From the NCBI RefSeq assembly GCF_024502345.1, contig NZ_JALDNN010000001.1: 64,000 nt of DNA; one strand, written 5' to 3'. Below the pieces are notes generated by a model. It saw nothing but the letters and a program-made list of their open reading frames with translations. It was not told where the DNA came from and searched no databases. Of this stretch, positions 8,907-60,600 are shown in pieces. The position numbers and the translations under genes were made by a program. Source of the DNA: Escherichia coli (GTDB taxonomy: Bacteria > Pseudomonadota > Gammaproteobacteria > Enterobacterales > Enterobacteriaceae). Position 1 is the first letter of the stretch. Every line of letters starts with the position of its first letter.

Positions 8907-10376
8907 ATGGTTTCCGAAACTAAAACCACAGAAGCGCCGGGCTTACGCCGTGAATTAAAGGCGCGTCACCTGACGATGATTGCCATTGGCGGTTCCATCG
9001 GTACAGGTCTTTTTGTTGCCTCTGGCGCAACGATTTCTCAGGCAGGTCCGGGCGGGGCATTGCTCTCGTATATGCTGATTGGCCTGATGGTTTACTTCCT
9101 GATGACCAGTCTCGGTGAACTGGCTGCATATATGCCGGTTTCCGGTTCGTTTGCCACTTACGGTCAGAACTATGTTGAAGAAGGCTTTGGCTTCGCGCTG
9201 GGCTGGAACTACTGGTACAACTGGGCGGTGACTATTGCCGTTGACCTGGTTGCAGCTCAGCTGGTCATGAGCTGGTGGTTCCCGGATACACCGGGCTGGA
9301 TCTGGAGTGCGTTGTTCCTCGGCGTTATCTTCCTGCTGAACTACATCTCTGTTCGCGGCTTTGGTGAAGCGGAATACTGGTTCTCACTGATCAAAGTCAC
9401 GACAGTTATTGTCTTTATCATCGTTGGCGTGCTGATGATTATCGGTATCTTCAAAGGCGCGCAGCCTGCGGGCTGGAGCAACTGGACAATCGGCGAAGCG
9501 CCGTTTGCTGGTGGTTTTGCGGCGATGATCGGCGTAGCTATGATTGTCGGCTTCTCTTTCCAGGGAACCGAGCTGATCGGTATTGCTGCAGGCGAGTCCG
9601 AAGATCCGGGGAAAAACATTCCACGCGCGGTACGTCAGGTGTTCTGGCGAATCCTGTTGTTCTATGTGTTCGCGATTCTGATTATCAGCCTGATTATTCC
9701 GTATACCGATCCGAGCCTGCTGCGTAACGATGTTAAAGACATCAGCGTCAGTCCGTTCACCCTGGTGTTCCAGCACGCGGGTCTGCTCTCTGCGGCGGCG
9801 GTGATGAACGCAGTTATTCTGACGGCGGTGCTGTCAGCAGGTAACTCCGGTATGTATGCGTCTACTCGTATGCTGTACACCCTGGCGTGTGACGGTAAAG
9901 CGCCGCGCATTTTCGCTAAATTGTCGCGTGGTGGCGTGCCGCGTAATGCGCTGTATGCGACGACGGTGATTGCCGGTTTGTGCTTCCTGACCTCCATGTT
10001 TGGCAACCAGACGGTATACCTGTGGCTGCTGAACACCTCCGGGATGACGGGTTTTATCGCCTGGCTGGGGATTGCCATTAGCCACTATCGCTTCCGTCGC
10101 GGTTACGTATTGCAGGGACACGACATTAACGATCTGCCGTACCGTTCAGGTTTCTTCCCACTGGGGCCGATCTTCGCATTCATTCTGTGTCTGATTATCA
10201 CTTTGGGCCAGAACTACGAAGCGTTCCTGAAAGATACCATTGACTGGGGCGGCGTAGCGGCAACGTATATTGGTATCCCGCTGTTCCTGATTATTTGGTT
10301 CGGCTACAAGCTGATTAAAGGAACTCACTTCGTACGCTACAGCGAAATGAAGTTCCCGCAGAACGATAAGAAATAA
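8907..10376 (+). CDS. lysP: Lysine-specific permease (APC superfamily), 489 aa
   Basis: ORF track; amino-acid permease signature; length and synteny. Confidence 0.95.
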   Translation: MVSETKTTEAPGLRRELKARHLTMIAIGGSIGTGLFVASGATISQAGPGGALLSYMLIGLMVYFLMTSLGELAAYMPVSGSFATYGQNYVEEGFGFALGWNYWYNWAVTIAVDLVAAQLVMSWWFPDTPGWIWSALFLGVIFLLNYISVRGFGEAEYWFSLIKVTTVIVFIIVGVLMIIGIFKGAQPAGWSNWTIGEAPFAGGFAAMIGVAMIVGFSFQGTELIGIAAGESEDPGKNIPRAVRQVFWRILLFYVFAILIISLIIPYTDPSLLRNDVKDISVSPFTLVFQHAGLLSAAAVMNAVILTAVLSAGNSGMYASTRMLYTLACDGKAPRIFAKLSRGGVPRNALYATTVIAGLCFLTSMFGNQTVYLWLLNTSGMTGFIAWLGIAISHYRFRRGYVLQGHDINDLPYRSGFFPLGPIFAFILCLIITLGQNYEAFLKDTIDWGGVAATYIGIPLFLIIWFGYKLIKGTHFVRYSEMKFPQNDKK

Positions 10377-10396
10377 GTTTCCTCCCTTCCTTGCTA

Positions 10397-10423
10397 AGCC
10401 CTCTCAACCGAGAGGGCTTTTTC
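10397..10423 (+). terminator. Rho-independent terminator of lysP
   Basis: AGCCCTCTC-AACC-GAGAGGGCT hairpin followed by TTTTT. Confidence 0.8.
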
Positions 10424-10470
10424 AATTCCATTTCCCTGACAAATCATGCGGATATAAAATTTAACATTTG

Positions 10471-10500
10471 GATTGATAATTGTTATCGTTTGCATTATCG
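10471..10500 (+). promoter_or_regulatory. Fur box(es) in the cirA promoter
   Basis: GATTGATAATTGTTATCGTTTGCATTATCG matches the GATAATGATAATCATTATC Fur consensus; leaves a ~170-nt leader before cirA. Confidence 0.7.
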
Positions 10501-10669
10501 TTACGCCGCAATCAAAAAAGGCTGACAAATCAGGGGCTGTTCCGGCTTTCTGGGATGATCACCTGCATAAAAAATAAGTCCACCGCGATGCTGCCGTACG
10601 CAAGGGGACGTGAAGAAGATGTGAGCGATAACCCATTTTATTTTCGTAGTTACCTCATGGAGATATGGA

Positions 10670-12649
10670 ATGTTTAGGTTGAACCCTTTCGTACGGGTCG
10701 GGCTGTGTTTGTCCGCTATTTCTTGTGCATGGCCTGTGTTAGCGGTCGATGATGATGGCGAAACGATGGTTGTCACTGCATCTTCCGTTGAACAAAACCT
10801 TAAAGATGCACCCGCCAGTATCAGCGTCATTACCCAGGAAGACCTGCAGCGAAAACCGGTACAGAATCTGAAGGATGTCCTCAAAGAAGTGCCTGGCGTA
10901 CAACTGACGAACGAAGGGGATAACCGTAAGGGCGTTAGTATTCGTGGTCTGGACAGCAGCTACACCCTGATTCTTGTCGACGGTAAACGCGTTAACTCCC
11001 GCAATGCCGTCTTCCGCCACAATGATTTCGATCTGAACTGGATCCCGGTCGATTCCATCGAACGTATTGAAGTGGTCCGTGGCCCGATGTCGTCGCTGTA
11101 CGGTTCCGATGCGCTCGGCGGTGTAGTGAATATCATCACCAAAAAAATCGGTCAGAAATGGTCGGGTACCGTTACCGTCGATACCACCATTCAGGAACAT
11201 CGCGATCGCGGTGATACCTATAACGGTCAGTTCTTTACCAGCGGACCATTAATTGACGGTGTGCTAGGAATGAAAGCTTACGGCAGCCTGGCAAAACGTG
11301 AAAAGGATGACCCGCAAAACTCAACGACCACCGATACTGGAGAAACGCCGCGTATTGAAGGATTCTCCAGCCGCGACGGCAATGTCGAATTTGCCTGGAC
11401 ACCGAATCAAAATCACGATTTTACTGCCGGATACGGTTTCGACCGTCAGGATCGTGATTCCGACTCGCTGGACAAAAACCGCCTGGAACGCCAGAACTAC
11501 TCCGTCAGCCATAATGGGCGTTGGGATTACGGCACCAGCGAACTGAAATACTACGGTGAGAAAGTCGAGAACAAAAACCCTGGCAACAGCAGCCCGATAA
11601 CTTCCGAAAGCAATACGGTCGACGGCAAATACACGTTGCCGCTGACGGCGATTAATCAGTTTCTCACGGTTGGCGGTGAATGGCGTCACGACAAACTTAG
11701 CGATGCGGTGAACCTGACCGGGGGAACCAGCTCCAAAACGTCTGCCAGCCAGTACGCGCTGTTTGTGGAAGATGAATGGCGGATCTTCGAGCCGCTGGCG
11801 CTGACGACCGGCGTGCGTATGGACGATCACGAAACCTACGGTGAACACTGGAGTCCGCGTGCCTACCTGGTTTATAACGCCACCGACACCGTAACGGTGA
11901 AAGGGGGCTGGGCGACGGCATTTAAAGCACCTTCTCTGTTGCAACTTAGCCCTGACTGGACGAGCAATTCCTGCCGTGGCGCATGTAAGATTGTGGGTAG
12001 CCCGGATCTGAAACCAGAAACCAGCGAAAGTTGGGAGCTGGGGCTTTACTACATGGGTGAAGAAGGCTGGCTGGAAGGGGTTGAATCCAGCGTTACCGTT
12101 TTCCGTAACGATGTGAAAGATCGTATCAGCATCAGCCGTACGTCTGACGTCAATGCTGCACCGGGCTACCAAAACTTTGTTGGTTTTACAGCGAACGGTG
12201 TGCCGGTATTTAGCTACTACAACGTTAACAAAGCACGTATTCAGGGCGTGGAAACCGAGCTGAAAATTCCGTTCAACGATGAATGGAAACTGTCACTCAA
12301 CTACACCTACAACGATGGTCGTGATGTCAGCAACGGCGAAAACAAACCGCTATCCGATCTGCCGTTCCATACCGCTAACGGTACGCTGGACTGGAAACCG
12401 CTGGCGCTGGAAGACTGGTCATTCTATGTTTCTGGTCACTATACCGGGCAGAAACGAGCCGACAGCGCGACGGCTAAAACACCGGGCGGTTATACCATCT
12501 GGAATACCGGCGCGGCCTGGCAGGTGACTAAAGACGTCAAACTGCGCGCAGGCGTGCTGAACCTTGGCGACAAGGATCTCAGTCGTGACGACTACAGCTA
12601 TAACGAAGACGGACGTCGTTACTTTATGGCAGTGGATTATCGCTTCTGA
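10670..12649 (+). CDS. cirA: TonB-dependent outer-membrane receptor for catecholate siderophores / colicin I receptor, 659 aa
   Basis: ORF track; signal peptide, TonB box (ETMVVTA), C-terminal aromatic residue. Confidence 0.95.
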
Positions 12650-13550: not shown

Positions 13551-13774
13551 TCATCATACCGTTTATTCAGTGTGCTGTGAGTAACTTTCACTTCCGTATT
13601 TGCATAACGATGTTTTAACATCTGCTGATGAAAGGCAGCGGCAATTACAATAATTATCGCTGTGAATACTGGATTATGTGCGCCGCCTCACGCACAATAA
13701 TCAGGCTGTAAATCAGCTTAATAACTTTGCCCCCACGCAGGGCGGAGGCGTCACACCTGCAGGAGAAATCATAA

Positions 13775-23563: not shown

Positions 23564-23712
23564 AAATATTGCGTGCTGATATTAAGGCTATGCGCGTGGG
23601 GAAATTTATACTGTGAAAGGATTCACAAATAGCTGCGGTTCAGAATGTTATATCCGCAGCTTATTGAGTGAAGTAATAATTATTCTCAATAATTAACAGA
23701 AAAGAGAAAATA

Positions 23713-54020: not shown

Positions 54021-54048
54021 TTGCAATTAAGATAATGAGATTTATAAT
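54021..54048 (+). promoter_or_regulatory. Sigma70 promoter of peptide gene copy A (-35 TTGCAA, 16-bp spacer, -10 TATAAT); -35 shared with the divergent sRNA promoter
   Basis: Hexamers read directly; predicted TSS near 54056 gives a ~174-nt leader. Confidence 0.6.
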
Positions 54049-54229
54049 CCTGACTGTTGGGACGTTGCGCCGGATCGAACCTATTTCAAGTCCTGGCTAC
54101 CGGACGGGGGGTGCTGCAGGTAGTGCCCTGATCCGGAGTGCAACATCGTGGTCCAACATACGTAAACCAGTATCGACAGGCAGTGTAAGGGTAAGGTGCT
54201 GGTGTTGCGCTCCTTAATAAGGAGAGCGG

Positions 54230-57631: not shown

Positions 57632-60600
57632 TTATTCAAACAGGGCTTCAATATCGTTAATTAGCTCGCTGGCGGTGATGGCATCGAGTACGGAGAGCTG
57701 CGCTTCCTGTGTTGAATTACTCCCCCAGCCATAGCTTTCCGCTTTGCCTTCCCATAGCCACAGCTTGCTTAAGAGCTGCTCAGCGCTAAGTTCGGCTGGT
57801 GACATACCCACTGCAAAGCCTTCATCGATTTCCATGATTAACGACCAGCGGCCCAGAGGTTTGATCATCCAGCCGATCCAGCCTCCATCCTGTGGTTCGC
57901 CCTTTATCCAGCCTTTATTCGCCAGCCCCATTACCCGACCGCTCGGGCATTTTCTGCTTGCCCAGCGGGTCAGTTCGCTGGCATTGCGCTCGGTTTCTGT
58001 CAGGGCGTAACTGTTACGGTCGAGCTGGCGGAACGGCGGTAGCAGTTCGTAGTCGGCAAAAAGCTGCCCAAATGCGGCGGCATCCGTCGGTGATATTTCC
58101 AGAACGTGAGGAATACCAACAGAGATATCGCCTTCCGGCAGGGTGAAAAGATCATCGTCAGCGGTGCTGTAGCTGTTATCTTCCGCTACGCGAAAGCAAG
58201 CCAGTAGCTGGTTTTCGGCGCTATAAACACCCCAAATCAGACGGCGGGTTAAGTGGCGAACCAACGGATGCTCAACCAGGAAGAGCTGGAAGTTTTCCGG
58301 CGACCAGCGGCGGCGCAGGCACATGGCGGATTCCAGCCTTGCTACCTGCTGGGCGGCGACGGTACGCGCATCTTTTTTCAGCAATTTGTAGCGGTTAACC
58401 GCATCGTTCGCCTGTGATTCATCATCGCTTTTATTGGGTTTAGGTAAGTCTTTCAGGCGGCTGCCGGAAACATCACGCACAAACGGTTTTAAGGTTTCAT
58501 CAAAGCTGACGGTGAACTGGCGTGGGCCAAAATCCAGCAGCAACGAACCGTTATCATCCAGACCGAGATCCGGTGCTAACCGATCTTCAAGCTCCGCCAC
58601 TGTCAGTTCGCGACTTTCGGCAATGTCGGCAATTTTCTCTTTCGCCCGCTCCTGTAATGCTTTGAATTTCAGTTTCTGGGCAATGCCGTTAAGCTGCATC
58701 AGGGCGATATCACTACCGATAGCGGCGAGAATATCCAACCCAACGGTGGCGCGTTTATGCTGAGATTCGCCAGGCCAGGCGCGGATTAATGGCGTCAGTT
58801 TGCGGGCGGTGTCATCGTTGCCGAGAACACCTAACGCAATGAACGCCCAGCTTTCTTTCGATGGCGCGCCCGCAGTCAGCCAGGCGGTAAACAGATCCCA
58901 GGCAAATTCAGCCAGTGAGTCGGCGGTACAGGCATCTTTCACCTGCAATAATCCCGGATACAGAGCCTCTTCCTGAGGGAAGCGGAGCATTTCACCGAGG
59001 TGCTGGAGTGCGCTATCGGGCAGTGATTGGGCGTTTGCTTTTAATACCGGGCGCGTCCAGAGCGATGGCTGATAAAAGGCCGGAAGAGTGGGGATTTTTG
59101 TCGGGTGATTATCTAAGGGATCGAGCGCAAGCAGAGCGTTCACCGCGTCTGTTACTTCCGGCTGGTTATAACGCCGGGCGATTTCTTGCAGTAATGGCTG
59201 ATGACCATTTTCGGTAAGCATACGCAAGGCAGCGCGGGCGTTATCCTGTGCTTCACCGGCTTTGCCGAGCGCCGCAGGCAGCAGGCCGGTAAGGGCATGT
59301 TCCGGGTATTTCAGCAGCCAGGTGCGGGCGTCTTGTCGTAGGGTTTTGAGTTTGTTGAAGGCGCGGGCGACGGCAGGAGCTAGCTCACTCGCTGCGAAGT
59401 AATTCGTGATGGGCAAGGCTTCCTGCGGATAGCGTGTAATTGAGTTAACTAAACCAGGTAAACCTTTGAGTCCAAAATGTAACATGGCGTATTCGGTATC
59501 GGTATGTGGAGATAGAGTAAGGGCATTCCATGCTTTTACTGCTTTCTCCAGCGGCAATGTTGTCAAAATCCCCAAATGCCAATAATGCCCGGTAGGTGAA
59601 TGAAACACCTTAAATTCACTTATTAAGGTTGAATAATCTTCATTTAGCCATGCCTCAACTACCGCTTCGGGAGCTTTAATATATGTACCAGCGATCCGTC
59701 GTTGAAAACCCATCCTTGCCAACAGGTTGGTAGTACTTTCTTCATGGCTAACCGTGATGTGTTGTGAATACCAGATATATTTCGCCAAAAGTTGATTACT
59801 GATTTCTTCTGTCATATAACAGATTGGCTCAATGCCTAATGGCGCTAAATCCAGCACCGGAATCGGCGATTTTTTCTTTTTCGAAAGCCATGGTGGGGAG
59901 ACTACTATGGCAGGCAGTAGATCGGCGCAGGCATGGTTTGAGGGCTGTGTCAGTTGTTGCTGGCATGATTTCAGTACGGCAACTGCGGGTGTCGAGAGCC
60001 AGGGAAGGACCTGTTCTGCCAGTGCTGGTTGTGAGATAAGCATTGTCATTAGCATAATGCGCCAACTGTTCTCTTCTTTTTGCCCAAGAAGTTCCGTCAG
60101 TGCCGCCATTGCTGCATGTGGGAACGCAGCAATGGCTTTCGTCATCCGATCGTGACAGCGTTTAGTTTGCCCGGCTACACGTATAAGCAGTGTCAATGCG
60201 ACCGGATGATTGATATGACGCAACACATCGGCGCAGTAGTCACTTGCGGCATAGGGAGCAAATCGGGGCAGGGCTGCAACACCTTGCTCCTGTAATACGG
60301 TGGCTGACCATATCGCACCACAATAGTAATCATCAAAAATGGCATATGGCTCGTGATATTTTTCTAATGAGGCAAGAATGTGCTCATCAGTCGCCACTAT
60401 TTTTAACCACTCAAGCGAGGGTAATTTTTTTTGCCCCAGTAGACGCTGGGCAATTTCATGTGCAATTTCTGGTTTTTCGGGTAATAACAAAGCAATTAAT
60501 GGTTGCCGCCATTCTGGAATATGTGGAATTGCGGCAATAAGTTTTTGTGCACATTTTTGCCAGAGAGACTCTTCCGCCAGTGATAAATGTTTACGTAGGC

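Follow-up and report, generated by a model that had tools for sequence, protein, structure and literature searches.

The shiA mRNA is described as a classical case of anti-antisense activation, in which the small RNA RyhB opens an inhibitory hairpin. RyhB pairs within the long 5′ untranslated region of this mRNA, upstream of the Shine–Dalgarno sequence (SD), and raises its translation (Prevost et al. 2007). As in cirA, the other RyhB-activated target considered here, an Hfq-dependent repression is countered by RyhB (PMC5861419). Hfq positioned near or upstream of the translation start also acts as a direct repressor in the sdhC–Spot 42–Hfq and mutS–Hfq systems, with the difference that the sRNA recruits Hfq at sdhC, whereas it removes the effect of Hfq at cirA. 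The fepA and fecA genes resemble cirA in another respect, being Fur-repressed genes for TonB-dependent receptors that are under OmrA/OmrB control. The Fur site of most such receptor genes lies 25–90 nt from the start codon, and that of cirA is unusually distant, at −189 (table in Chen et al. 2007, PMC2189734). Activation by RyhB is a feature of cirA, and the literature examined contains no report of it for fepA or fecA.

The nearest described system is the promoter and leader region of K-12 cir (cirA) itself (Griggs and Konisky 1987/1989; Guillier and Gottesman 2008; Salvail et al. 2013). The locus is identical, and so are its flanks, lysP and yeiG. The Fur operator, the promoters P1 and P2, the RyhB site, the OmrA/B site and the SD are all identical in sequence to those analyzed here. 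The differences are limited to one substitution at position 10534 and to a patch of the coding sequence with a net 12-nt deletion, and none of them is a difference in kind. Earlier publications on this sequence already cover the Fur promoter, the leader and the sRNA control of cirA. The present analysis located the elements and assessed how they stand statistically and how far they are conserved; the Fur footprint, the start sites, the RyhB and OmrA/B regulation with its compensatory mutations, and the repression by Hfq are taken from the literature. We are highly confident that the region is the native E. coli cirA control region, a Fur-repressed double promoter followed by a long leader under the control of RyhB, Hfq and OmrA/B.

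Genomic Context

CirA is a TonB-dependent catecholate-siderophore receptor and the entry gate of colicins Ia and Ib and of microcin V. Catechol-type siderophore antibiotics also use it to enter the cell. The 64-kb window, i.e., the whole stretch of DNA analyzed, is E. coli chromosome. The 324 bases round the cirA control region are 99.7% identical to K-12 and are found in 5,425 of 5,426 complete E. coli genomes, every time beside a gene annotated cirA. The open reading frame at 10670–12649 (+ strand) is identified as CirA by the NCBIfam equivalog NF007478, over its full length and with 1445 bits (cut-off 745). It encodes 659 amino acids here versus 663 in K-12. Compared to K-12, a short and highly variable patch of this coding sequence (12187–12202) shows several substitutions and a net loss of 12 nt; it may represent a variant surface loop with a bearing on the recognition of CirA by colicins or phages.

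The gene order is lysP (8907–10376) upstream of cirA and yeiG downstream. Since the cirA ATG stands at 10670, the control region is the lysP–cirA intergenic region. These 293 bp differ from K-12 by a single base (10534, G here and A in K-12), which falls within the non-conserved 5′ part of the cirA leader. The intrinsic terminator of lysP (10396–10419, + strand), with a 10-bp G+C-rich stem and a following T run, sets the 5′ limit of the control region.

Fur Operator and Promoters

Three overlapping Fur-box 19-mers occupy positions 10469–10499. They start at 10469, 10475 and 10481, hence 6 bp apart, and match the consensus GATAATGATAATCATTATC at 13, 14 and 12 of 19 positions, respectively. The central 7-1-7 palindrome TGATAATTGTTATCG (10474–10488) agrees at 12 of 14 positions and is the joint best in the 64-kb window. 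A search of the window for the 19-bp consensus with up to three mismatches gave no match, each cirA 19-mer having at least five. This empty search was replaced by match counting and by a summed three-site cluster score. Since no single 19-mer comes within three mismatches of the consensus, the distinctive feature is the cluster. With a summed score of 39, it takes the first rank among 63,970 window positions, and this score was reached in one of 30 shuffles that preserved the dinucleotides of the window. The score is a crude one, and the next-best real sites reach 38, one point under the cirA cluster. Given this one-point margin and the weakness of the single 19-mers, the sequence statistics are only moderate when taken without the published footprint. 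The Fur-like matches scoring nearly as high as cirA are located at 23674–23688, 60029–60053, 54025–54049 and 13640–13659. The first one falls within yeiS and precedes preT (yeiT) by about 270 nt, a gene for which an upstream Fur cluster has been predicted (Chen et al. 2007, PMC2189734), and the last one lies in the yeiG–folE intergenic region.

The footprinted cir Fur site is centered at −189 and comprises three overlapping sites totaling 20.7 bits within a 43-bp footprint (Chen et al. 2007, PMC2189734). This footprint, at NC_000913 2244957–2244999, is quoted there from Griggs and Konisky (1989). In the window, the cluster center (10481) precedes the cirA ATG by 189 nt, so that the cluster coincides with the published footprint, with −189 corresponding to the palindrome center. 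The Fur operator is thus placed at 10461–10504, where the 43-bp footprint contains the three 19-mers and the core palindrome TGATAATTGTTATCG. A previous sequence-only reading had located overlapping Fur boxes about 170–200 nt upstream of the ATG, which is borne out by the three 19-mers, by their center at −189 on the published footprint (PMC2189734) and by the first rank of the cluster in the Fur scan. Its location of the region was right, although the start it gave, 10471, lies a few bases into the operator, whose first base is at about 10461–10469.

A promoter scan of positions 10300–10750 found only two sigma-70-like matches, both within the Fur operator. The first one, P1 (10461–10497, + strand), has a −35 element TTAACA (10461–10466), a 17-bp spacer and a TG-extended −10 element TATCGT (10484–10489), with a start at about 10497. 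The second one, P2 (10473–10510, + strand), combines a −35 element TTGATA (10473–10478), a spacer of the same 17 bp and a −10 element TATCGT (10496–10501), with a start at about 10510. Two cirA promoters with leaders of 173 nt (P1) and 160 nt (P2) have been described by Griggs et al., as cited by Guillier and Gottesman (2008, PMC2588501). The two start coordinates were computed from these published leader lengths and from the ATG at 10670. They fall 7–8 nt downstream of the two −10 hexamers, and the scan matches agree with the published P1 and P2. The long leader of about 170 nt that had been proposed from the sequence corresponds well to these 173 and 160 nt (PMC2588501). The Fur boxes overlap the −35 and −10 elements of both promoter matches, at a distance of 160–210 nt from the ATG.

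Conservation was analyzed with 80 cirA loci from species-representative genomes, ranging from Escherichia to Rahnella, Erwinia and Mixta, which make 81 with the window. A 7-1-7 Fur match of at least 11 of 14 positions is present upstream of cirA in 65 of these 81 Enterobacterales loci, its center ranging from −215 to −94 with a median of −187. One of the loci (L027, CACSKA010000001.1) is titled “Chryseobacterium sp. 18061” and is a typical enterobacterial cirA locus, with 81% amino-acid identity, a Fur box and an OmrA/B site; this is probably a mislabelled or contaminated assembly.

Architecture of the Leader

The 5′ untranslated leader of cirA, in its P1 form, extends from 10497 to 10669 (+ strand). 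Its 5′ two-fifths (about 10497–10566) are poorly conserved and vary in length between species. This 5′ part is conserved neither in sequence nor in length, the Fur box being found anywhere from −94 to −215. It follows that the conserved unit is the 3′ 100 nt of the leader, with the hairpin, the RyhB site, a U-rich stretch and the OmrA/B site with the SD. This agrees with the deletion of −149 to −54, which leaves OmrA/B control largely intact (PMC2588501). Several genera have their Fur box just 94–130 nt from the cirA ATG. In Leclercia (L016 and L017), a Fur box occupies the place where other species carry the hairpin, which means a much shorter leader; the RyhB and OmrA/B sites are kept there.

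A 40-codon open reading frame lies within the leader (10555–10677, + strand), with its ATG at 10555 and its TAG at 10675–10677, so that it ends 5 nt beyond the start codon of cirA (ATGTTTAG overlap). The frame lacks an SD, and neither its phase nor its stop is kept in relatives because of variations in spacing and of TTT/TTC/TTA variation. A functional upstream open reading frame was rejected on these grounds, and the overlap is probably meaningless.

No element with an overall conserved fold emerges from the structural analyses. The leader gave no hit against Rfam at E-values up to 10, the only matches being the lysP terminator or noise, and its folding energy is ordinary (z = +0.61). From the MAFFT alignment of the 81 sequences, RNAalifold gave nothing more than a trivial 3-bp helix, and no structure common to the full module. 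Nearly every species examined is nevertheless predicted to form a local stem-loop that immediately precedes the RyhB site. In E. coli it corresponds to GUCCACCGCGAUGCUGCCGUACGCAAGGGGAC (10578–10609, + strand) and is predicted in every fold. The covariation of this stem-loop was counted in a hand-chosen sub-alignment of 36 other Enterobacteriaceae, from which Escherichia and Salmonella were left out because their hairpin lies at the same place in a different register. The inner five pairs are paired in 91% of cells, all five with changes on both sides. None of 500 shuffles reaches these values, and slid controls show 23–60% pairing. The loop is conserved in these 36 Enterobacteriaceae as 7 nt with the consensus C-A/G-A-N-G-N-A (alignment A2, loci L012–L082).

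The hairpin is preceded by an A-rich tract, ATAAAAAATAA (10567–10577, + strand), and similar A-runs are found before the hairpin in many relatives. Read from the sequence, this tract could possibly be an Hfq distal-face site. Any role of the A-rich tract and of the hairpin at 10578–10609 is putative; the hairpin may already be described in Salvail et al. (2013).

Pairing with RyhB

The RyhB, OmrA and OmrB sequences used were confirmed by exact matches in E. coli genomes and by Rfam RyhB and OmrA-B hits. Duplexes computed with RNAduplex between the full-length sRNAs and the leader spanned the whole molecules, had positive net energies and were meaningless, and pairing was scored with windowed duplexes and opening energies. 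The RyhB site obtained in this way (10611–10630, + strand, i.e., −59 to −40) pairs with RyhB nucleotides 40–58, within the single-stranded core of this sRNA (about nt 37–58), and its core TGTGAGC (10620–10626) is complementary to RyhB GCUCACA. It provides 12 consecutive pairs, with a hybridization energy of −21.0 kcal/mol and a total of −13.4 kcal/mol including opening costs. The second-best site in the leader totals −1.3 kcal/mol, and none of 100 dinucleotide-shuffled leaders reaches −13.4 kcal/mol with RyhB (mean −2.4, best −9.9). Hybridization energy alone is not discriminating, since −20 kcal/mol or better is attained by 177 of the 42,652 windows taken along the 64 kb. The seed complement GTGAG[CT] is found between −85 and −35 in 66 of the 81 loci, mostly at −48 to −52.

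The RyhB site has been confirmed by compensatory mutations (Wang et al. 2015, oligo JW5381, Fig. S3). JW5381 changes TGTG into GTAT and maps to window positions 10620–10623, in the middle of the predicted duplex. The earlier suggestion that the leader is a target of iron-responsive sRNAs is therefore borne out by a documented site, with compensatory mutations at 10620–10623 (Wang et al. 2015), and the accessibility-aware scan picks 10611–10630 as by far the best site. Its broader statement of consistency with what is known for cirA holds as well, the footprint, P1/P2 and RyhB activation being all published. Two features had been missed: the OmrA/OmrB repression at the SD region, and the fact that RyhB relieves an Hfq-mediated repression rather than repressing in the classical way.

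According to the papers citing Salvail et al. (2013), RyhB activates cirA translation. In these secondary accounts, translation is blocked by Hfq sitting on a translational enhancer of the cirA leader, until RyhB pairs upstream of it, changes the leader structure and lifts the block; in the summary by Ellis (2015, PMC5006887), Hfq is displaced once RyhB has bound. A U-rich stretch, CCAUUUUAUUUUCGUAGU (10632–10650, + strand), separates the RyhB site from the SD and is T-rich in nearly all relatives. It is likely the “translational enhancer” or Hfq-binding region of the published model. In the predicted folds, the SD GGAG is almost always paired with this U-rich stretch (10639–10668 region), with a probability of being unpaired of 0.04 versus 0.05 whether the RyhB site is free or blocked. 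A simple anti-antisense mechanism at cirA is not supported by folding, as blocking of the RyhB site in silico leaves the SD closed. The activation is thus not accounted for by RNA folding alone, in agreement with the Hfq-dependent mechanism from the literature. In this respect cirA differs from shiA: no SD opening is predicted upon RyhB binding, and the literature invokes the displacement of Hfq from the enhancer.

OmrA/OmrB Site and Translation Start

OmrA and OmrB share the 5′ end CCCAGAGGUA, to which the pairing site TACCTC-A-TGG (10651–10660, + strand, i.e., −19 to −10) is complementary. This site overlaps the published SD (PMC2588501), GGAG (10659–10662, + strand), whose columns are invariant in the present alignment (A1). 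The OmrA/B pairing at the cirA SD region has been demonstrated by compensatory mutations (PMC2588501), and the window site at −19 to −10 is exactly the published pairing. It is nearly invariant, ACCTCATGGAG being exact in 66 of the 81 loci. The accessibility-aware scan does not rank this true site first, which fits the short, 9-bp, Hfq-assisted pairing reported (PMC2588501).

A second motif, GGAA (10667–10670, + strand, −3 to +1), is conserved in most Enterobacteriaceae, not in Erwiniaceae. Mutations at −3 to +1 raise expression, and an “up” mutation that lies between SD and AUG does so more than 8-fold, an effect for which its authors favor a decoy-SD explanation (PMC2588501). Two GGA motifs (10659–10661 and 10667–10669), spaced by 8 nt and spanning the SD and the start codon, are kept in most Enterobacteriaceae, and this twin arrangement resembles that of CsrA binding sites. 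CsrA has been reported to repress cirA expression globally, with many of its effects on iron-uptake genes appearing indirect and lacking CLIP-seq peaks (Potts et al., PMC5694010). The repression of cirA may likewise be indirect.

Alternative Interpretations

The Fur-like boxes might be chance matches in AT-rich DNA, the true promoter being close to the ATG and no long leader being made. The lack of any 19-mer within three mismatches of the Fur consensus and the several other window sites whose crude consensus counts are nearly as high point in this direction. On the other hand, the cirA cluster comes first in the window, lies on the published footprint and is kept in 65 of the 81 loci, and the promoter scan finds no match nearer the ATG. 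This interpretation is moreover contradicted by the start sites mapped in the literature and by the compensatory mutations tested with RyhB at −50 to −47. A leader must be transcribed for the sRNA sites at −59 to −40 and −19 to −10 to function and for deletions from −149 to −21 to alter the regulation, and we consider the chance explanation extremely improbable. Scarcely more plausible, and in our opinion very unlikely, is a leader acting mainly in cis, as a riboswitch, a thermosensor or an attenuator, or through a translated upstream open reading frame, rather than through trans-acting sRNAs. The 40-codon frame at 10555–10677 that overlaps the cirA start, the covarying hairpin 5′ of the RyhB site and the predicted pairing of the SD are what it has in its favor. 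The absence of any Rfam match, the folding z-score of +0.61 and the RNAalifold result without a structure over the whole module all argue against a large cis-acting structure. The upstream frame has no SD and is not kept, nor is its stop, in relatives, and the length of the 5′ leader is not conserved (Fur box from −94 to −215).

One more, undescribed regulator acting on the conserved 3′ module in addition to Fur, RyhB, OmrA/B and Hfq is somewhat more plausible, although we regard it as unlikely. This could be CsrA on the twin GGA motifs, or a factor (Hfq, another sRNA or a protein) docking at the hairpin with its conserved 7-nt loop and the A-tract before it. The twin GGA motifs 8 nt apart at the translation start, kept in most Enterobacteriaceae, the “up” mutation with its more than 8-fold effect (PMC2588501), the global repression of cirA by CsrA (PMC5694010) and the loop consensus that is conserved while the stem covaries would all fit such a regulator. 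If true, direct CsrA binding at the twin GGA would account for the 8-fold “up” mutation. However, CsrA effects on iron-uptake genes are often indirect, without CLIP-seq peaks (PMC5694010), the decoy-SD explanation is the one favored for the “up” mutation (PMC2588501), the second GGA is absent in Erwiniaceae, and the hairpin may already be in Salvail et al. (2013).

Integrated Model of cirA Control

The native, Fur-repressed and sRNA-controlled region that we favor works as follows. Transcription is governed by Fe2+-Fur binding to the Fur-box cluster (about 10461–10504). Since this cluster covers the −35 and −10 elements of P1 and P2 as well as the P1 start, transcription is blocked in plentiful iron. 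The promoters give a leader of 173 or 160 nt, whose conserved 3′ 100-nt module successively presents the A-rich tract, the stem-loop, the RyhB site, the U-rich stretch, the OmrA/B site with the SD, and the AUG. Without RyhB, leader-bound Hfq holds cirA translation low. RyhB pairing at −59 to −40 relieves this block. RyhB is itself repressed by Fur and hence made only in iron starvation. As Fur represses both the cirA promoters and RyhB, Fur and RyhB form a coherent double lock. OmrA and OmrB, which are induced by EnvZ-OmpR, pair across −19 to −10, leading to SD occlusion and RNase E-dependent decay.

The leads that go beyond the published accounts examined are minor and may have been described before: the hairpin that covaries, together with the A-rich tract preceding it, the twin GGA motifs, and the CsrA repression of cirA. 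Because CirA is the entry gate for these agents, its control region helps to determine the sensitivity to colicins Ia and Ib, microcin V and catechol-type siderophore antibiotics, a biology that is already established. The comparison across species makes a small addition to it, in that only the 3′ 100 nt of the leader are conserved, the 5′ part being dispensable filler.
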